A DNA stretch of 64,000 nt from a virus. Taxonomy: Duplodnaviria > Heunggongvirae > Uroviricota > Caudoviricetes. Where the stretch lies: the IMG/VR virus record IMGVR_UViG_3300038393_000804, positions 83,598 to 147,597 of that record. One strand, given 5' to 3'. The position numbers and the translations under genes are program-made. Of the stretch, positions 2,686 through 51,264 are shown piece after piece; the first letter of the stretch is position 1, and every line of letters starts with the position of its first letter. The notes under the pieces were generated by a model. It had not been told where the DNA came from. It made no database searches and worked only from the letters and a program-made list of their open reading frames with translations.

Positions 2686-5670
2686 TTACCAGCGACTTCT
2701 TGACGGCATTCCGCTTCTTCCGCCGCCCGAACCTCTAGCACCCCAGCCCAATGAAGTTCCGCGCTTTCCTACGCTTGTTTTGCGTGGTGGCGGAGGAGTA
2801 GGTTCATCCCATTTCTGGATGTACTCTTGTTTCTCCTGTTGGGTTCTGTCAGTACCTCTATAGATTCGTCCAAGCGGGTCAACGAACTTAACGTCCGCAA
2901 CCGCTACGGTTCTAGCTGGCTGTGAATCCTCAATGGTCTTAGCAATGTCAGGCATTTGGTCAATGAATGCAAAGATACCCAACATCATCGCATCGAGTGC
3001 GTGCTCATCAACATTGGTGTAAGTCGGTTCGCCAGTCTTCGGAGAAATACGTTCTACTGTGTAGTTCGTCATCTGTCTGAAGATAACTTCGTCAACATCC
3101 TTGTTAGGAATCATCAACTGACCACGTTCCAATATGAGTGTCGTTTGGTTAACCATGAACGGCTTTAACGGCTTGTTATCAAACTCACGACTATATGGGT
3201 CACGTACTAGATAAGAGCTGCCAAGTGCAATACCCTTAACGACATCGCCCAATGTCTTACGCAACATTTCGACCTGATATTCACCTGAGCCTCTGTCGGC
3301 ATAAATGGCGAATGGTCTGTAAATGTTATTGAGTTCAATAATCTTCCGAACCGCGTTATCATAGGTAAATTCGCCCTTTGGTATTTCTACACGATTGATG
3401 ACTTGGAATCGTCCATATTTGACTACTCCTGGCCCATCAACCTCTGGGCGTGGTCGCCTTTCTAAGAATGGATTCCATTGAGTAACAACGATTTGAGTCG
3501 CTGCACCCATCTTATCCCAGTCAACGCCAATGGCGATTGGGCTGTCCATCCTAGGCTGGCTGAGTAAAGCGTAACCATTAGACGCTGCCTCGTCAATATA
3601 ATCTTTGTTAAATACCCCCACTAATTCTGTACCGAAGTTCGCCATAACCTCATGGTCGTAAGCCACGTCACTGTAAAGGTTGCGTAATTCCCTTTCCATC
3701 TTCGGTGACCAGCCTGGGTTAACCATCGTTGGGAAGTAGAACTCCGCCCATCCTTCAGCTAGTTTTCGGTCATAAGTGCGGATATCAAATTGATTTGCCA
3801 GCTTACCTTCTACATCAGGGCCACCTTTAAATAGTCTTACATCTTGATTTAGCTTTTCCTGAGTACAGATTTGCCAGAATTTGCCCCGTCGTCCAGTCGG
3901 TGTAGATGCAACCATTACGCCGATTTCATCTGGTCTTTCAAGGGTAATCGCGAAGATAGCTTCAAAGTCTTTGTCGCCAAGGTAGTCAACCTCATCCATG
4001 TATAGCCAAGATGCTTTCTGACCACGGAGAGAACCACCCTCTGTACCACTACGAGTACCAGCTGTGTACAGCTTAATACGAGATTTATTCTTGAAGACAA
4101 TCTCATATGGAGAACGACGGATACTAGCAACCGCTGCTTGAAGCACTGGATTATTGTTAATGAAGTTGTTTAACTGGTCAAATATCTCACGGGCCTGTGT
4201 ATCGTATGGTGTTGCAACCAGACATGTAGCACCTTTCTTCAGCTCTGTACCACCATTACATGTAAAGGCAACCCAAAGCATATGCGCTGTCATTGTCCAT
4301 GTGTTATGCACCAATACATCTTCTACTACTAGGTTGTGAGTCTCTGGAACGAATACGTCATAAGTCTGACGCTTACCCAGTGGCTCAATCGCCGTCACTT
4401 CTTCCCAGATAACATCAGCACGAGCCAAGTCATAAAGGAATGCGGACTCAAGATTGTCAGCATACTTACGAATCTTAGAAATAGTCGGAGCTACGCCAGG
4501 ACGAAGACGTTCGTCTTTGCCGCCAGCTACCTGAGCTTTCGACATTTTCTTCTCTTTACGCTCTTGGTCAATATGCTTCCACACTTCAATAGGAACAGTG
4601 TGTTCTACTACTTCTGTCTTCTCTGCTTGCTCCACAATACCTTTCATTGTGTATTCAGAGCCAAGAATATTAATGTCCATGCCGAAAAGCATTAAGCTTT
4701 CGCGTCTATGAATCATCAATTGATAGATAAAGCTGACGTTGTCCTTGTACTTCTGCCTCTTTGTTTGGAGATTTGTCTGGATACCGAAGCGAAGCAATAG
4801 GTGCTTAACATCCTGTGCAAGCTTCTTAGATACTGTTGCAAATCCAATCTCTGGACGTGTGCCATTATAAACCCATCCACTTACTGCATATAAGCAATTT
4901 AGGAAGATAGATATTTGCTCTTTCTTCAATCCATAAATGAAACTAGGAATCTTTCTTTCTATTACTGCCATAAGGATGTCTTCATCAATAGAAGAAGCAA
5001 TGACACATGTATTCTCCTTATGAGCTTGGCGAATAACCTTTAGTCCATACTTCTCTGCATTATAGATGAAATCTTTCATAACAGTCTGAGACTTAGTACT
5101 GAATGTTAATTGGCTTCCGTTGTAATGTCCGCCTGCAATCAAATAAGCAATAAGCTTTACCTTTTCATAGAGCGTTAATCCGTTCCCGAAATAAGGCATA
5201 GCTGATGGTGTTGCAATGCGCATTCCCTTTTGAAGAGCATCCACTTCCACCCAACCATCTAATGTTAATACAGGATGATTGCCAGTCAGGATAACTTCTG
5301 CCCCGTATTTAGTGCGCACAAGAAATGTTTCCTTTACCCCATTGTCCTCTACAAAGAAAGCTTCACTTGGTTCTAAGTGATACTTCTCGTTTAATGTGAT
5401 GAGTGACGGTTTGCCGCCATCTTTCTGCATTTGGAATAGCTCTTCTACTGACCAGTACTCTCCTGTTACTGGGTCTAATACACGTTGGGTTTCCTCAATA
5501 CATTTTCCGATACGTCGTCCGCATCGAAGAACTTTACGGTGGTGAGGATGTCTTAAGATTTGCTCTTGATACCAACGAGGGGCCTCACCTAAATGGTGAG
5601 CTGCCCACTTCGCTGGGTCACGCATAATCTCAATCATTTCCCTATCGTGATTAGTAAATTGTTTTGCCAT
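2686..5670 (-). CDS. terL: terminase large subunit, interrupted in-frame by an intein
   Basis: Exteins join as CGRRIGK|TWT, giving a Walker A GxxxxGKT. Walker B LYMDEVD follows. A C-terminal nuclease-like region is present. Intein blocks: CIEET (A), GNHPVLT (B), LIAYLIAGGHY and FLNCLYAVSGWV (LAGLIDADG), VLVHN|T (G). Confidence 0.85.
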   Translation of the reverse strand: MAKQFTNHDREMIEIMRDPAKWAAHHLGEAPRWYQEQILRHPHHRKVLRCGRRIGKCIEETQRVLDPVTGEYWSVEELFQMQKDGGKPSLITLNEKYHLEPSEAFFVEDNGVKETFLVRTKYGAEVILTGNHPVLTLDGWVEVDALQKGMRIATPSAMPYFGNGLTLYEKVKLIAYLIAGGHYNGSQLTFSTKSQTVMKDFIYNAEKYGLKVIRQAHKENTCVIASSIDEDILMAVIERKIPSFIYGLKKEQISIFLNCLYAVSGWVYNGTRPEIGFATVSKKLAQDVKHLLLRFGIQTNLQTKRQKYKDNVSFIYQLMIHRRESLMLFGMDINILGSEYTMKGIVEQAEKTEVVEHTVPIEVWKHIDQERKEKKMSKAQVAGGKDERLRPGVAPTISKIRKYADNLESAFLYDLARADVIWEEVTAIEPLGKRQTYDVFVPETHNLVVEDVLVHNTWTMTAHMLWVAFTCNGGTELKKGATCLVATPYDTQAREIFDQLNNFINNNPVLQAAVASIRRSPYEIVFKNKSRIKLYTAGTRSGTEGGSLRGQKASWLYMDEVDYLGDKDFEAIFAITLERPDEIGVMVASTPTGRRGKFWQICTQEKLNQDVRLFKGGPDVEGKLANQFDIRTYDRKLAEGWAEFYFPTMVNPGWSPKMERELRNLYSDVAYDHEVMANFGTELVGVFNKDYIDEAASNGYALLSQPRMDSPIAIGVDWDKMGAATQIVVTQWNPFLERRPRPEVDGPGVVKYGRFQVINRVEIPKGEFTYDNAVRKIIELNNIYRPFAIYADRGSGEYQVEMLRKTLGDVVKGIALGSSYLVRDPYSREFDNKPLKPFMVNQTTLILERGQLMIPNKDVDEVIFRQMTNYTVERISPKTGEPTYTNVDEHALDAMMLGIFAFIDQMPDIAKTIEDSQPARTVAVADVKFVDPLGRIYRGTDRTQQEKQEYIQKWDEPTPPPPRKTSVGKRGTSLGWGARGSGGGRSGMPSRSRW
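4303..5502 (-). mobile_element. Intein of about 400 aa (TerL residues about 57-456) with a LAGLIDADG homing endonuclease domain, inserted in the TerL P-loop
   Basis: Starts with Cys right after GRRIGK and ends in HN followed by Thr. Two LAGLIDADG-like motifs lie between the splicing blocks. Confidence 0.7.
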
Positions 5671-25463: not shown

Positions 25464-25506
25464 TTAACCAAAAAACTATAACTAATAATAAGGATGGTAA
25501 TTAATC

Positions 25507-26727
25507 ATGACTAAATTTGTAAAATTCGTAGCAACTACTGAAGATGTTAAAGCTGGTGTTGATGTTCTTGTTGAAGACTTCCAAATGACTGTTAACAACT
25601 TTACTGCTGAGGGCAAGAACGGACTTGAAGAAGCTGTTGATATGTATGTGATGGAAGCTATCAACGGCGGAGAGAAGTCCATCGCTGTAGTATCTGATGA
25701 TATCAATGTTGCTAATGCAATCGCTGCTGTACTAAACCAAGCATACACTAAGGAGATGGAATTAATGAAAACTACTAAAACTGCTGAAATCACTGTATCT
25801 GTTGAATCTACACCTGAAGAAAAGAAAGCTGCTACTATCGCTAAATCATCTGCTGCACAAAAGTTCTTGGCTAAACATGCAAACAAAGTTGAAAACACTA
25901 AGGAGGAAGTTGAAATGAAACAAGAAGAAAAGAAGGTTGCTGGTCGTCGTCGTTTAAATACTGGTGCTGCTACACAAGAAGAAAAGAAAGCTGAAGTAAA
26001 AGAAACTAAAACTACAACTAATGAAAAGGTGGAAACTGAAATGAATAAACCAAACCGTAAATCTACTAGCCGTGTACTAAAGAATACTAAGCCTGCTGCT
26101 GCTGAAGGTCGTCGTCGTCTAGGTCGCTCTGAATCAATCAAGAATGAATTCAAGAAGTTTGAAGGCCCTTGGTACTTGAATGCTGAACTATACCCTGTAT
26201 TAAACCGATTAGAAGGAATCCTTGAAACATTGTCTGATGCTGAACTAGGTATTGAGCAAATCGTATTGGTTGACCCAAGTGAAGTGTCTCGTACTCGTAA
26301 CAACCCAGACATCACTGTGGTAATCCAAATCAAAGCTAATGGTAACATCTTGGAGTTCCCAATCAAGAATGCATCTGCTAACTCTAGCTCTGACCTTGCA
26401 TCTACTTCTATTGGATGGGTGGATACAAAGAACGGCCTTCGTCCTGCATTCGGTTTCTGGAGACCTAATGAAATCAATGTGAAAGCTACTTGTACTTGCG
26501 GTAAAGAATTCAAAGGCAACACTGGTAACCTATACTGCACAAGCTGCAAGAAGAAACATGCTGACGCTGAAGTATCTGTATCACACGCTTTGGATATGGA
26601 GTTTGATGGCAACTGGGTATTCCAAACTGTTCCTAACTTGGTTGTACCTCGTGAAACTCTTGCATTAATCATGGCTATTGCTCAGTATGATGCTGGTCTT
26701 GACATGTGGGGAGTTGTAGCAGAGTAA
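25507..26727 (+). CDS. hypothetical protein, 406 aa, with a Lys/Glu-rich basic middle segment (repeated GRRRL)
   Basis: AAGGATGGTAAT RBS; terminator downstream. Confidence 0.65.
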   Translation: MTKFVKFVATTEDVKAGVDVLVEDFQMTVNNFTAEGKNGLEEAVDMYVMEAINGGEKSIAVVSDDINVANAIAAVLNQAYTKEMELMKTTKTAEITVSVESTPEEKKAATIAKSSAAQKFLAKHANKVENTKEEVEMKQEEKKVAGRRRLNTGAATQEEKKAEVKETKTTTNEKVETEMNKPNRKSTSRVLKNTKPAAAEGRRRLGRSESIKNEFKKFEGPWYLNAELYPVLNRLEGILETLSDAELGIEQIVLVDPSEVSRTRNNPDITVVIQIKANGNILEFPIKNASANSSSDLASTSIGWVDTKNGLRPAFGFWRPNEINVKATCTCGKEFKGNTGNLYCTSCKKKHADAEVSVSHALDMEFDGNWVFQTVPNLVVPRETLALIMAIAQYDAGLDMWGVVAE

Positions 26728-33943: not shown

Positions 33944-35197
33944 ATGAACGAAATGGAATTTGCTAATGCAGTGCATGAAGCTGGGGGTATTGCTTACCGT
34001 GTGGGTGGCAGCATCCGTAATAAAATCTTGGGCATTCCCGTTCATGATAATGATTATTGTGTTACTGGTTTAACAGGAGAACAATTTGAAAGATTATTTC
34101 CTCGTGCTTATTCTGTTGGGCTTAGCTTTCATGTATATCTTCTAGAAATCGGAGAAGAAATATGTGAGGTAGCTTTTGCTAGGAGAGAAAAGAAAGTGGG
34201 CGAAGGACACAGAGGATTTGAAATAGATTCTAGTCCCGACATTACGATTGAAGAAGACTTATCTCGTCGTGATTTTACAATGAATGCGATTGCTTATAAC
34301 ATTCTTCGAGATGAGCTTTATGACCCATTTAGCGGTCAGAGAGACATTAAGAATAAAATAATCAATGCAACAACAGAAGCGTTTAAAGAAGACCCATTAA
34401 GGGTTTATCGGGCCGCACGATTTGCTGCTCAATTAGGATTTGATGTACATCCGAATACATTAGAAATGATGAAGGATGAAACTCTACAAGAGGAGATGAA
34501 GTCATTATCGGTTGAACGTGTTTATCTTGAACTAGAAAAAGCTTTAGAGTCTGACCACCCAGAAAAGTTTTTTGAAGTACTGAAAAATGGGCAGTGCCTA
34601 CAGGTTCACTTCAAAGAAGTTTATGACTTAATTGGTGTGGAGCAACATCCTGAACATCATCCAGAGGGTGATGCGTATAATCATACGATGCAGGTTTTGT
34701 CTGAGATGTGCAAGCTAACAGACCAAGTTGAAAGGAGATTTACTGCTCTTTGTCATGACTTTGGTAAGGCTCGTACTCCTAAAGAGTTGTGGCCTAAGCA
34801 TCATGGTCATGAAGAAGCTGGTGTAGCACCGCTAGAAGAAATATGTATTCGTTTGAAGCTTCCGAAAAAATGGTTTAATGCCGCTCATTTTGGCGTTCTT
34901 AATCATATGAGATTTCATCGTGTTCATGAAATGAGGGACGTGAAGAAAGTCGATATGATTGAAGGAGCTAGAAAAAGTGCATTGGGTGTTGAAGGTCTTG
35001 CTCAATTAGGATTAGCAGATGCTCGTGGTCGGAATGGATTACATGAAGGACATTCTAATTACGGGCCATTTCTATTCTGGGCTAATGAGATTTCTAAAGT
35101 TAAAGGTAATAAGGAACTTGAAGGCATGAAAGCGTGGGATGACAAAAGAAAGAGACAGGCTGCTCTTATAAAACAAATCAAAGGAGAGAGCAAATGA
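33944..35197 (+). CDS. cca: CCA-adding tRNA nucleotidyltransferase / poly(A) polymerase family enzyme with a C-terminal HD domain
   Basis: Head domain GGSIRN...HDNDY (GGxxR[DN]...DxD), RRDFTMNAIAY, and an HD domain (HDFGK, HGHEEAG). Confidence 0.8.
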   Translation: MNEMEFANAVHEAGGIAYRVGGSIRNKILGIPVHDNDYCVTGLTGEQFERLFPRAYSVGLSFHVYLLEIGEEICEVAFARREKKVGEGHRGFEIDSSPDITIEEDLSRRDFTMNAIAYNILRDELYDPFSGQRDIKNKIINATTEAFKEDPLRVYRAARFAAQLGFDVHPNTLEMMKDETLQEEMKSLSVERVYLELEKALESDHPEKFFEVLKNGQCLQVHFKEVYDLIGVEQHPEHHPEGDAYNHTMQVLSEMCKLTDQVERRFTALCHDFGKARTPKELWPKHHGHEEAGVAPLEEICIRLKLPKKWFNAAHFGVLNHMRFHRVHEMRDVKKVDMIEGARKSALGVEGLAQLGLADARGRNGLHEGHSNYGPFLFWANEISKVKGNKELEGMKAWDDKRKRQAALIKQIKGESK

Positions 35198-44143: not shown

Positions 44144-45574
44144 ATGTCGATGATGGATTTGCCACCACCGCTAAAACCTACAGAAACATTAGAGCTGCTT
44201 AGAGCATACAAGGCGGGGGATGAGGAAGCTAAAGAGAAAGTAATTGAAGGTAATCTCAGGTTGGTAGTGCATATTGCAAAAAAGTATGACAACACAGGAC
44301 TAGACATAGAGGATTTGTTTAGTATTGGATTAATCGGTATGATTAAAGCTGTTCATACTTTTAACACAGAGAAGGAAGTCAAGTTTGCTACATACGCTTC
44401 ACGATGCATCGACAACGAAATCTTGATGTTCCTTCGGAAAGGTAAGAAAATCAAAGCTGAAACGTCCATTGACAGCCCGATAACGACGGATATAGATGGA
44501 CATGAATTAACTTTGATGGATGTCACGCCTGATAAGAACATCCAACATTTCTCAGAAGTGTTTGAATGGAACGATACCATGGCTGAAGTACGAGCTGCAT
44601 TGGAAGGCTTGTCGCCACGGGATAAAGATATTATTCTTATGCGTTACTTTCAAAATCAAACACAACGGGAAGTGTCGGCGGCACTCGATATCTCTCAGTC
44701 CTACATATCAAGGATAGAGAAAAAGATATTGAAGAAAATAAAAAAGACCATTGAGTCTAATCAAGCTAAGGCAGAAAGGAATGAAGAGAAAATGGCTAGA
44801 GGAATTGCACCAGCCAATAAGAAAGAAGTTATTCACTTGTTAAAGACAACGACGATGTCTTACAAAGAAATCAATGAAAAGACAGGCGTACCTTACAGCA
44901 CTATTGCAACGTATGCTCAGAAGCACCGTCCAAAAGAAGTGCGGAAGGAAAAGATGACTAATCATCCAGGCATGGTTCGTGAACATAGCGGGGACACCGA
45001 TAAAGCGGTCCAGTTGTTGGCAGAAGGTAAATATACCTATGCAGAGATATCAAAACAAACAGGTGTCCCAACAGGTAGTCTAACCAGATTACGTCGTTTA
45101 TATGAGAAAGGCGATTACAAATGGGTCAATGAACCTAAGAAACGGGTGGAGATTGAAGTACCAGTTGAAACGCCAGTGATTAATCATCCAGCTTTCATGG
45201 GTGAAAAAGACAAGGAAAGGTTGGTAGAACAAGTGCCTGTTGTAAAACATGAAGTTGAGCAAGTGGAAATCAAGAAGCCTGAACAGCCTGTTGTGAATAT
45301 GGCAGAAGCAATCGAAGAGTTCAAGGCTGAAATCAAAGCCGAGCTTCGTGCAGAAGTTGAAGCAGAGGTTCGCAAGGAGATGGCTGCTGAAAGCGTTGCT
45401 ACAGAGACATCACCAATGGGTAAGATTCAAAAGCTTCTAACATTTAAGTATCATGCTTCGGGCGGGAACGTTCCAACTGAAGATTTCGTAGCTGAAATGA
45501 AAGAGCTGATTAGCATGCTTGAAGAAAGCAATAACGGTTCTATCACATTCACATTAAATGTAGAAGCTGAGTAG
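44144..45574 (+). CDS. sigma-70 family sigma factor resembling sporulation SigF/SigG (regions 2-4), fused to a roughly 270-aa C-terminal extension carrying two extra HTH-like repeats
   Basis: Region 2 IEGNLRLVVHIAKKYDNTGLDIEDLFSIGLIGMIKAVHTFN...KFATYASRCIDNEILMFLRK. Region 4 LSPRDKDIILMRYFQNQTQREVSAALDISQSYISRIEKKILKKIKK. Confidence 0.8.
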   Translation: MSMMDLPPPLKPTETLELLRAYKAGDEEAKEKVIEGNLRLVVHIAKKYDNTGLDIEDLFSIGLIGMIKAVHTFNTEKEVKFATYASRCIDNEILMFLRKGKKIKAETSIDSPITTDIDGHELTLMDVTPDKNIQHFSEVFEWNDTMAEVRAALEGLSPRDKDIILMRYFQNQTQREVSAALDISQSYISRIEKKILKKIKKTIESNQAKAERNEEKMARGIAPANKKEVIHLLKTTTMSYKEINEKTGVPYSTIATYAQKHRPKEVRKEKMTNHPGMVREHSGDTDKAVQLLAEGKYTYAEISKQTGVPTGSLTRLRRLYEKGDYKWVNEPKKRVEIEVPVETPVINHPAFMGEKDKERLVEQVPVVKHEVEQVEIKKPEQPVVNMAEAIEEFKAEIKAELRAEVEAEVRKEMAAESVATETSPMGKIQKLLTFKYHASGGNVPTEDFVAEMKELISMLEESNNGSITFTLNVEAE

Positions 45575-49327: not shown

Positions 49328-49742
49328 CCCGTACCTATTGCCAGGTGCTGCAACCCTTCGTTTAATTAAGGAGTGGGAGCAGCACGGGAAGTTAATCGTT
49401 GCTTATGACTTTGATGGAACGGTTCATGACTACCACAAGGAAGGCAACAAGTACGACCAAGTCATTGAACTTCTTCGGGAGTGCAAGAAGCTTGGCTGTT
49501 ACTTGATTGTCTTTAGTACAAGTGAACCAGAACGACATGATTTCATTAAGAATTATCTTGATAGATGGGATATTCCTTATGACGCAGTCAATGAAAACAT
49601 GCCAGGTCTTCCGTTTAAAGGCGGCAAGATTTATTACAACATCCTGCTGGACGACAGAGCAGGATTAGAGTCAGCTTATTATTCATTAAAGCAAGCTAGC
49701 AGTTATATTAAATTGAAACGGGAGGAAACAAATAATGACTAA
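49314..49742 (+). CDS. HAD-superfamily phosphatase-like protein
   Basis: DxDGT motif (YDFDGTV) near the N-terminus; TTG start with GAGGAG. Confidence 0.55.
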   Translation: MFLTDPYLLPGAATLRLIKEWEQHGKLIVAYDFDGTVHDYHKEGNKYDQVIELLRECKKLGCYLIVFSTSEPERHDFIKNYLDRWDIPYDAVNENMPGLPFKGGKIYYNILLDDRAGLESAYYSLKQASSYIKLKREETNND

Positions 49743-51264
49743 AACTATTTTTCCAGCTACATTGTTGTGTGATTTTTACAAGGTGTCTCACCGTGAGCAG
49801 TATCCAAAGAAAACAAATAAGGTTTTCAGCACATGGATTGCACGAGGCAACAAGTACTTCCCGAAAGCAAAGAAAGTTGTAGCGTTTAACTTCCAAGGAT
49901 TAACCAAGAAATACTTTGTTGATTACTTCAATGAGCATTTCTTTAGCCGTCCAAAGGATGAAGTGGTATTTGAATACCAACGTGTTATCTACTTTACATT
50001 AATCAATCCTGGCAATGTTCAGGGTGTTGCAGACCCATTAATGGAAGCATCAAAGGTCGATGCGGAGCACATTGCAGCTCTTCATGATTTAGGTTATCTT
50101 CCAGTTCGTGTAAGAGCTGTGAAAGAAGGTACGTTGGTTCCAATGCGTGTTCCAATGTTGGTCATCGAAAATACAGTGGATGAATTCTACTGGGTAACAA
50201 ATTATCTTGAAACCATTATGTCAGCTGAGCTTTGGCAGCCAACAACATCTGCAACGATTGCTTACACGTACCGTCAGATTCTTGATGCGTATGCGATGGA
50301 AACAACAGGTTCTACAGCAGGTGTTGAATTCCAGGGTCATGATTTCTCTATGCGCGGTATGGCTGGCAAGGATGCGGCGGCAGCAAGTGGTGCTGGTCAC
50401 TTACTAAGTTTTGTTGGTACAGATACAATCCCAGCTATCAATTATCTTGAAGCTTATTACAATGCAAACATCGAGAAAGAATTGGTGGCAACTTCAATAC
50501 CTGCGACTGAACATTCAGTGATGTGCGCATACGGTCAAACAGATGAGTATGAATTATTCAAATCACTGATGACTGAAAAGTATCCAACAGGTTTCTTCAG
50601 CGTAGTATCTGATACTTGGGACTTCTGGAAAGTGGTTGGTGAATACTTACCGAAGCTGAAAGAAGAAATCCTTGGTCGTGATGGTCGCGTGGTTATTCGT
50701 CCTGACAGTGGTGACCCAGTTAAGATTCTTTGTGGTGACCCGAATGCAGAAGAAGAATTGGTGCGTAAAGGTTTAATTGAGAGCCTCTACGACATCATTG
50801 GCGGCACAGTAAATGATTTAGGGTACAAAGTATTAGACCCTCACATCGGAGCTATCTACGGCGATTCTATTACGCTAGAGAGAGCTGATTTGATTTGTGC
50901 TTTGTTAAAAGAAAAAGGCTTTGCTTCAACAAACGTGGTATTTGGTATCGGAAGCTTTACCTATCAGTATACAACGCGTGATACATTTGCACATGCGATG
51001 AAAGCAACCTTTGCTGAAGTGGATGGAGAAGAGCGCTTCTTATTGAAAGACCCTAAGACAGATGATGGTACAAAGAAATCATTAACTGGATTAGTGGCAG
51101 TTGTAAAAGTCGGTGGTGAATTAGTAGCCACTGATAATCTGGATACGAAAACTTATGAAGCAAACTTTGCAAACATTGACCTTCTTGAAGTTATCTTTGA
51201 GAACGGTGAAATCAAACGTGAAGAAAGCTTATCTGAAATTCGTGAAAGATTGGCGGCCCAATAA
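49735..51264 (+). CDS. nadV: nicotinamide phosphoribosyltransferase (NAMPT/NadV) family enzyme; alternatively a Namat-type nicotinamide ADPR transferase
   Basis: N-terminal DFYKVSHREQYP matches the NadV D.YK.SH..QYP signature; GGGAGGAAAC RBS. Confidence 0.8.
   Translation: MTKTIFPATLLCDFYKVSHREQYPKKTNKVFSTWIARGNKYFPKAKKVVAFNFQGLTKKYFVDYFNEHFFSRPKDEVVFEYQRVIYFTLINPGNVQGVADPLMEASKVDAEHIAALHDLGYLPVRVRAVKEGTLVPMRVPMLVIENTVDEFYWVTNYLETIMSAELWQPTTSATIAYTYRQILDAYAMETTGSTAGVEFQGHDFSMRGMAGKDAAAASGAGHLLSFVGTDTIPAINYLEAYYNANIEKELVATSIPATEHSVMCAYGQTDEYELFKSLMTEKYPTGFFSVVSDTWDFWKVVGEYLPKLKEEILGRDGRVVIRPDSGDPVKILCGDPNAEEELVRKGLIESLYDIIGGTVNDLGYKVLDPHIGAIYGDSITLERADLICALLKEKGFASTNVVFGIGSFTYQYTTRDTFAHAMKATFAEVDGEERFLLKDPKTDDGTKKSLTGLVAVVKVGGELVATDNLDTKTYEANFANIDLLEVIFENGEIKREESLSEIRERLAAQ

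Follow-up and report, generated by a model that had tools for sequence, protein, structure and literature searches.

A P-loop intein in the large terminase of a Bacillus-type large phage lacks the acids at both LAGLIDADG catalytic positions

Results

Within the window analyzed here, that is, the whole of a 64,000-nucleotide stretch of DNA (positions 83,598 to 147,597 of IMG/VR virus record IMGVR_UViG_3300038393_000804), the gene for the large terminase subunit (TerL) is interrupted in its ATP-binding loop (P-loop) by an intein of 400 aa. We consider it probable that this element is a splicing-competent class-1 intein whose nuclease is most likely dead, that it has been inherited mostly vertically, and that its LAGLIDADG domain has been kept by selection. 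Terminase inteins at the same position, between the Walker A Lys and Thr (hereafter, the K/T site), are already described; what is less ordinary is a clade-wide LAGLIDADG domain that is apparently nuclease-dead, yet selected. The window appears to belong to a large phage genome of the 0305phi8-36 / KLEB27-3 group, and its phage is a metagenomic relative of the ~220-kb Bacillus phages KLEB27-3, WH1, Edson, and 0305phi8-36.

The TerL precursor is encoded on the minus strand, as are all of its parts described below, by an open reading frame (ORF) of 994 aa plus stop codon (2686..5670), recognized from its translation, its match to PHROG phrog_2, and its 58-77% identity to the TerL of Bacillus phages and IMG/VR contigs. 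The N-extein (residues 1-56; 5503..5670), delimited by alignment with intein-free TerL, ends in the first part of the Walker A motif, G51-R-R-I-G-K56 (5503-5520). The C-extein (residues 457-994; 2689..4302) begins with T457 (4300-4302), includes the Walker B motif WLYMDE (3991-4008), and continues into the remaining ATPase and a putative nuclease domain. The match to phrog_2 ("terminase large subunit"; E 8.5e-26) covers residues 457-968, the annotated TerL of 0305phi8-36 and that of a Moorella phage align with the C-terminal half, and the host protein reads as a Terminase_6-type (T4-like) large terminase.

The insertion lies exactly at K56/C57 and N456/T457, between the Walker A Lys and Thr (...LRCGRRIGK/CIEETQRVLDP...EDVLVHN/TWTMTAH..., with slashes marking the junctions), and T457 doubles as the +1 nucleophile and the Walker A Thr. 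When residues 57-456 are deleted in silico, a 594-aa protein with the Walker A motif GRRIGKT results, GRRIGK/T being whole only after excision, and the score against Pfam Terminase_6N (PF03237, cut-off 22) changes from 18.6 bits (below the cut-off) for the precursor to 34.1 bits (above it) for the conceptually spliced protein. A preliminary description, read from the sequence alone, had placed the intein at 4303-5502 of a 994-aa ORF and proposed that its removal restores GRRIGKT in a 594-aa terminase; the translation bears this out, and the coordinates are exact to the codon (C57, 5500-5502; N456, 4303-4305).

The intein itself (residues 57-456; 4303..5502) is recognized by Pfam, phmmer, and NCBIfam, as well as by its modeled fold and the Foldseek matches of that model. 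In the Pfam search that the preliminary description had proposed as a check, the 400-aa insert scored above the curated cut-offs of both Intein_splicing (PF14890; 57.4 bits, cut-off 35.8, E 2e-15) and LAGLIDADG_3 (PF14528; 50.7 bits, cut-off 22.5, E 2e-13). The NCBIfam model intein_Nterm (TIGR01445) also matched above its cut-off, the intein-containing DnaB model PRK07773 matched insert residues 1-400 (E 3.7e-45), and in phmmer searches against the PDB, both halves matched the Mtu RecA and Ssp/Npu DnaB mini-inteins. These matches far exceed chance. Further, the four intein blocks named in the preliminary description are all present. Specifically, blocks A (CIEETQRVLDP, starting with C57) and B (LTGNHPVLT, 5263-5289, with T129 and H132) lie in the N-terminal half of the Hint domain (5188..5502), while blocks F (QTYDVFVPETHNLVV, 4324-4368) and G (EDVLVHN/T, its last residue N456) lie in the C-terminal half (4303..4416). 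Between the halves are the LAGLIDADG core (4711..5187), identified by Pfam, profile alignment, the model, and Foldseek, and a helical linker subdomain (residues 321-418; 4417..4710) that separates this core from the C-terminal splicing region.

An AlphaFold2 model built with 58 homologs (pLDDT 96.9, pTM 0.94) assigns, in intein numbering, residues 1-~105 and ~363-400 to a beta-rich Hint domain, residues ~265-362 to the helical linker, and residues 112-124 and 194-208 to the two LAGLIDADG helices, with strands after each. The top Foldseek matches of this model in the PDB were the TliVMA intein (7qss, E 5e-21), PI-PfuI (1dq3, E 1e-20), PI-TkoII (2cw7), and PI-SceI; below these came mini-inteins, free LAGLIDADG enzymes, and WhiA. 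Sequence and model together indicate a class-1 intein (Cys1 ... His-Asn / +1 Thr) with a LAGLIDADG-type insert at the "classic" P-loop site.

Comparison with related terminases that lack the insert, for which relatives were gathered by tblastn and IMG/VR scans, gave uninterrupted P-loops, colinear with the exteins. Empty-site contigs of the close clade are L021/L030 and L032 (extein identity 60-61%) and L041 (45%). L021/L030 and L032 read CGRRIGKTWTM without interruption, and L021 reads LRCGRRIGKTWTMCAHMLW, colinear with the window exteins. Most relatives at 29-44% identity are also uninterrupted at the site, and the distant P-loops of Moorella phage MTATph1 (MGRRTGKT) and Bacillus phage 0305phi8-36 gp117 (LGRRLGKT) are whole as well. 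The alternative that the insert is a native terminase domain, which the preliminary description had named as the outcome that would undo its proposal, is rejected because homologs are uninterrupted and colinear across the site; the rise in Terminase_6N score upon excision likewise speaks against it.

Whether the element still splices was judged from an alignment of 69 homologous TerL inteins (homolog search hits plus viral loci). In intein numbering, C1, T73, H76, H399, and N400 are invariant (69/69), D382 and H389 (precursor D438 and H445) are each found in 67/69, and the +1 residue is Thr in every intein sequence extracted. Because the splicing residues are invariant across the 69 inteins, we infer, from sequence and model, a working class-1 intein that would splice to give the 594-aa terminase.

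Class-1 splicing follows a standard four-step pathway. Applied to this gene, it would start from a 994-aa precursor in which the Walker A residues K56 and T457 are held 400 residues apart, so that the precursor could not form the ATP-binding loop. An N-S acyl shift at K56-C57 would be followed by transesterification onto the T457 side chain, by cyclization of N456, helped by H455 and residues of blocks B and F, and, finally, by an O-N shift, leaving a 594-aa TerL with GRRIGKT restored and a free 400-aa intein. Since the ATP-binding loop would exist only after splicing, DNA packaging would depend on it.

A splicing-dead pseudo-intein in a defunct terminase gene, with packaging done by another terminase encoded outside the window, would be the opposite case. 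The window covers 64 kb of a genome that is probably >200 kb, such that a second TerL could lie elsewhere, and decayed copies do occur in Bacillus genomes (P0016, with a degenerate P-loop and its HN lost; P0064, truncated). We regard this as extremely improbable, however. The ORF is intact over 994 codons, the splicing residues are all present and invariant, and strong purifying selection acts on exteins and splicing halves alike in the window's lineage (dN/dS 0-0.04 for the splicing halves and 0.05-0.16 for the exteins of close pairs; 0.08 for the C-extein between the window and L103). Further, the gene sits at a conserved position upstream of the portal gene, which is two genes downstream of TerL in the same contig in L026; conserved small Gly/Ala-rich ORFs adjoin TerL.

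Although the splicing part of the element appears to be in order, its endonuclease does not. The penultimate Asp or Glu of a LAGLIDADG motif is a metal ligand and is essential for catalysis (Taylor and Stoddard 2012, PMC3384342). The preliminary description had reported two LAGLIDADG motifs; both helices are indeed there, but the motifs are degenerate, and the metal-binding acid is absent from each. Motif 1 (LIAYLIAGG, 5128-5154) carries G180 (5131-5133) and motif 2 (FLNCLYAVSG, 4876-4905) carries S264 (4879-4881) at the penultimate, catalytic position; in the model, helices 112-124 and 194-208 end at these residues (G124 and S208 in intein numbering). Across the TerL inteins, Asp or Glu occupies this position of motif 1 in 0/69 sequences and that of motif 2 in 1/69. 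In a profile alignment to PDB sequences, the catalytic E of PI-PfuI (FIAGLFDAEGH) falls on the column of a missing acid, and the D residues of the TliVMA intein (YLIADGT and YIVCDGY) fall on both missing-acid columns. As both catalytic acids are lost, and such acids are essential, the nuclease is probably dead, and this copy is probably not self-mobile. Hence, where the preliminary description spoke of a mobile element, the intein stands, whereas mobility of this copy by means of its own nuclease probably does not.

Both Asp residues are kept in outgroup inteins, namely, the DnaB P-loop inteins P0058 and P0059 (GRPSMGK/C...VHN/T; LIGDG and FATDGW), P0060, and P0067, and in the TerL intein of L056-L059 (YMIGDGN and YATDGW), the extein of which is 32% identical to that of the window. 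These both-Asp inteins fall outside the acid-less clade in a neighbor-joining tree, and the simplest reading of the sequences is that the nuclease chemistry was lost once, at the base of the clade. The L056-L059 element (2753-4000), of the same intein family and at the K/T site of a distant TerL, is itself a candidate active relative because both of its catalytic Asp are intact.

Several observations would also fit a homing intein that is fully active and mobile at present, as the preliminary description had implied, with a LAGLIDADG domain that cuts intein-free terminase alleles during coinfection and copies the element in. LAGLIDADG_3 scores above its Pfam cut-off, the fold is complete, purifying selection acts on the domain (see below), the empty-site alleles in the close relatives L021 and L032 amount to a sporadic distribution, and the intein family is found at the K/T site of a 32%-identical TerL (L056-L059) and in DnaB P-loops as well. 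We nevertheless judge active homing to be improbable. Both metal-binding acids are absent from the window and from 69/69 (motif 1) and 68/69 (motif 2) of the clade members, the missing positions align to the catalytic D/E of solved enzymes, where they are essential for catalysis (PMC3384342), the insertion site lacks a co-conversion signature beside it (synonymous change of 0.75 vs 0.68), and the divergence of inteins is correlated with that of exteins.

The last two of these points bear on how long the intein has resided in this gene. Pairwise intein and extein identities correlate with r = 0.87 across 66 non-independent pairs, and GC3 is 0.37-0.45 in the intein parts vs 0.36-0.43 in the exteins. 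Foreign composition, as expected of a recent import, was considered, given that the LAGLIDADG core has a GC content of 0.375 vs 0.43-0.46, but was rejected, as GC3 is the same as in the exteins. A co-conversion tract was considered too; the first ~50 C-extein codons are 85-90% identical in DNA even to distant relatives. This identity arises because the amino acids there are 100% conserved, and with synonymous change at 0.75 in the first 50 C-extein codons vs 0.68 in the next 94, the tract was rejected. Taken together, the identity correlation, an empty allele nested within the intein-bearing clade, the GC3 values, and the lack of a synonymous deficit point, at the level of sequence, to long residence with mostly vertical descent and occasional precise loss. 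The presence of the intein family in DnaB and in a distant TerL indicates older transfers between P-loop sites, of the same kind as the "extein switching" via nucleotide-binding motifs discussed for actinophage inteins (bioRxiv 10.1101/2025.01.02.630785).

Even so, the sequence evolution of the domain indicates purifying selection rather than decay. For this estimate, the endonuclease-domain segment was taken as precursor residues 162-411 (the LAGLIDADG core plus most of the helical linker), and only close pairs were used because synonymous sites were saturated in all other comparisons, including those of the window with ten other TerL genes (three from GenBank phages, seven from IMG/VR contigs). 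The segment has a dN/dS of 0.051 between the window and L103 (Nd 28.8/592, Sd 87.2/158, Fisher p 2e-44), 0.028 between WH1 and Edson, and 0.032 between L014 and L015, and intein length stays within 382-414 aa across the 69 sequences. In the core, the conserved positions (intein numbering) are G209, W210, E218-G220, K233-I241 (KHLLLRFGI, 4780-4806), and Y259-L262. A conserved DNA-contact surface, sought through strand conservation, was unsupported; in the first LAGLIDADG half, the predicted DNA-facing beta-strand positions belong to the most variable ones of the family (entropy 2-3.5 bits). With the core conserved and DNA-facing strands variable, a folding constraint fits better than conserved target recognition, and the most likely explanation is that the domain is retained because the precursor must fold for splicing, although retention through a new DNA-binding or regulatory role is possible.

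That second route would make the element a domesticated intein, in which the nuclease-dead LAGLIDADG domain and its linker have gained a new selected role, by analogy with WhiA; DNA might, for instance, gate splicing, so that maturation of the packaging ATPase occurs only when appropriate, or the free intein might have a role after splicing. Both acids were apparently lost in a single event basal to a large radiation of Bacillus-type large phages, in which full length was then kept, and dN/dS (0.03-0.05) is as low as in the exteins. WhiA, a precedent for an acid-less LAGLIDADG protein that bears a helix-turn-helix (HTH) at its C terminus (PMC3384342), is among the Foldseek matches (3hyi, E 1.6e-5). 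The helical linker (model pLDDT 82) has conserved positions of its own (P304, W308, E312, V325, G327, Y347, N350, L356, and D358, intein numbering), and its weak matches in the PDB are mostly Cro/C1-type HTH proteins. However, in this Foldseek search against the PDB, nothing was significant for the linker (best E 0.57), the DNA-facing strands of the first LAGLIDADG half are very variable, and conservation sits in core positions, where a folding constraint accounts for it better. We therefore grant domestication a small but real chance.

Against our preferred reading, of a splicing-competent and mostly vertically inherited intein with a probably dead nuclease and a selected domain, several points must be set. 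With regard to the nuclease, basic residues near the usual Lys positions partly persist, P0003 has an Asp in motif 2, and a noncanonical active site may exist. With regard to descent, the neighbor-joining tree places the empty-site allele L021 within the intein-bearing clade, and the same intein family occurs in the 32%-identical TerL of L056; gain and loss thus do occur, and vertical descent is not the whole history. Further, the endonuclease-domain segment exceeds its flanks in synonymous divergence, both for the window vs L103 (0.99 vs 0.10-0.61) and for a second, independent close pair, WH1 vs Edson (L001/L002; 0.67 vs 0.03-0.19), an excess that may come from recombination of intein alleles, with weaker codon constraint as another possibility. 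Finally, the trees are neighbor-joining without bootstrap, the 66 identity pairs are not independent of one another, and the selection estimates come from three close pairs only.

Discussion

TerL is the most intein-rich protein of mycobacteriophages, and the K/T Walker A site, termed TerL1-a, is described as the "classic" P-loop insertion, one often found in ATPases of bacteria and archaea (Kelley et al. 2016, mBio, PMC5050341). Hence, the statement in the preliminary description that inteins in terminase P-loops are known is correct, whereas its view that they are always noteworthy is generous. The intein in the window resembles the TerL1-a mycobacteriophage inteins in its class-1 chemistry and its insertion site, and in the LAGLIDADG endonuclease that many of them contain. 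It differs in its host protein; the TerL1-a inteins reside in Terminase_1-type TerL of actinobacteriophages, whereas the TerL here is of the Terminase_6 type and belongs to a 0305phi8-36-like phage, and in the set of Kelley et al., Terminase_6-type TerL had inteins only in the C-motif (PMC5050341). Several mycobacteriophage inteins have been shown to splice and to encode active endonucleases (PMC5050341), whereas the one described here is known from sequence and model and is missing its catalytic acids.

In the Bacillus phages vB_BauM_KLEB27-3 (OM634661), vB_BceM_WH1 (LC597490), and Edson (PV796108), TerL contains orthologous inteins, which are of the same family and occupy the same site, are 58%, 44%, and 44% identical to that of the window, respectively, and share its acid-less motifs (AGG and VSG). 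In these records, the gene is named "terminase large subunit" or "hypothetical protein," and the intein is unannotated. The window phage differs from them in being metagenomic and distinct. Closest to it are the IMG/VR contigs L008 and L007 (~76% aa identity), together with L103 (in the same 90%-identity protein cluster as the window TerL), and the exact protein is already in IMG as "intein/homing endonuclease" on 10 metagenomic contigs. At the nucleotide level, megablast of the TerL gene against a phage collection gave only 73-79% partial matches; a comparison of 25 kb of the window with plasmids gave no match, and a scan of the precursor against genome contigs found no relative.

Outside terminases, the closest relatives are the DnaB P-loop inteins (PRK07773; metagenomic P0058 and P0059), which are ~35% identical and likewise inserted at a Walker A GK/T, unlike the present element in their host protein and in keeping both Asp. 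The solved endonuclease inteins PI-PfuI (1dq3), TliVMA/PhoVMA (7qss, 7qst), PI-TkoII (2cw7), and PI-SceI (1vde) have the same layout, with a LAGLIDADG double domain dividing the Hint domain (Foldseek E 5e-21 to 1e-11), although they are only 10-18% identical and have D/E where the window has G and S (in an alignment that covers PI-PfuI motif 2 and TliVMA motifs 1 and 2). WhiA/DUF199 (3hyi) shares a LAGLIDADG fold without catalytic acids, followed by a helical, possibly HTH, region. However, it is a free-standing bacterial regulator outside inteins, and the likeness is architectural only, the linker here being a candidate HTH region.

The terminase gene of related phages holds a variety of other elements. 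Group I introns (Rfam RF00028, 56-91 bits, above the gathering score) split it in many relatives (L022 7677-8266; L025 7671-8254 and 8751-9096; L023 9747-10100), at one site in Walker B, right after LYMD, and at a second near residue ~715. Because of these introns, more than 50 homologs (P0001-P0057) are ~560-aa fragments that end just past LYMD, named only "LAGLIDADG family homing endonuclease." In L046 (1973-4120; also in L045), two inteins stand three residues apart in one P-loop, with the layout MGRR/C..371 aa (a LAGLIDADG motif with DG)..VHN/TGK/C..252 aa..SHN/TWTM and an Intein_splicing score of 121 bits in two stretches. The TerL of Acinetobacter phage vB_AbaM_ME3 (L006 649-2931) and that of L065 contain a mini-intein of ~144 aa (GRR/C...HN/TGKT; Intein_splicing, 55.6 bits) three residues upstream of the window's site, for which the record says only "large terminase subunit." In L098 (2837-4100), the insert at the same GK/ position begins with Ala (GRRIGK/ALDINTPIPT...; LAGLIDADG_3, 38.5 bits) and may represent a class 2 or class 3 intein, one that lacks the N-terminal nucleophile. 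Copies of the same intein-bearing terminase that have decayed or been truncated are seen in P0016 (LHCGERAGK, terminal HN lost) and P0064 (which starts inside the intein), which suggests that these loci of Bacillus genomes, including B. thuringiensis israelensis ATCC 35646, are remnants of a defective prophage or phage-plasmid. On the related viral contig L023, the minus strand carries a Pistol ribozyme (RF02679, 71 bits; gathering score 34.5) at 300-369, a few kb from the terminase gene.

In the window, a search of all 289 ORFs of at least 60 aa with an HMM of the intein family yielded a match to the TerL ORF only, Rfam gave no match in the window at gathering thresholds, there is no intron in its TerL gene, and the 64 kb contain no tRNA genes. 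Its auxiliary genes are typical of large phages: on the plus strand, a sigma-70 r2/r4 factor with extra C-terminal HTH regions (44144-45574), a NAPRTase/NAMPT-family enzyme (49735-51264), a CCA-adding/poly(A) polymerase-like enzyme with an HD domain (33944-35197), and a JAB-domain protein (61532-62818); and, on the minus strand, a DNA-repair-exonuclease-like protein (phrog_7339; 160-1047). Two ORFs of 396 and 406 aa (25482-26672, minus strand; 25507-26727, plus strand) overlap nearly fully on opposite strands. Both lack a match in Pfam and PHROG, and probably no more than one of them is real.

For this phage group, our results imply that TerL genes are mis-sized and mislabeled in public records, where they appear as "hypothetical protein," "LAGLIDADG family homing endonuclease," or "terminase" without mention of an intein, the true terminase probably being the 594-aa spliced product. 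With splicing inside the ATP-binding loop, packaging might be controlled at the intein, which could also serve as a target. In relatives, the same gene has additionally picked up a second intein in the P-loop and as many as two group I introns, which makes this terminase well suited to studying how selfish elements accumulate in a single essential ATPase. The loss of the catalytic acids across the clade, combined with purifying selection, provides a clean natural setting in which to ask why an intein retains an endonuclease domain after homing has stopped. Were domestication the answer, the LAGLIDADG domain would be a WhiA-like selected module rather than a decaying homing endonuclease.

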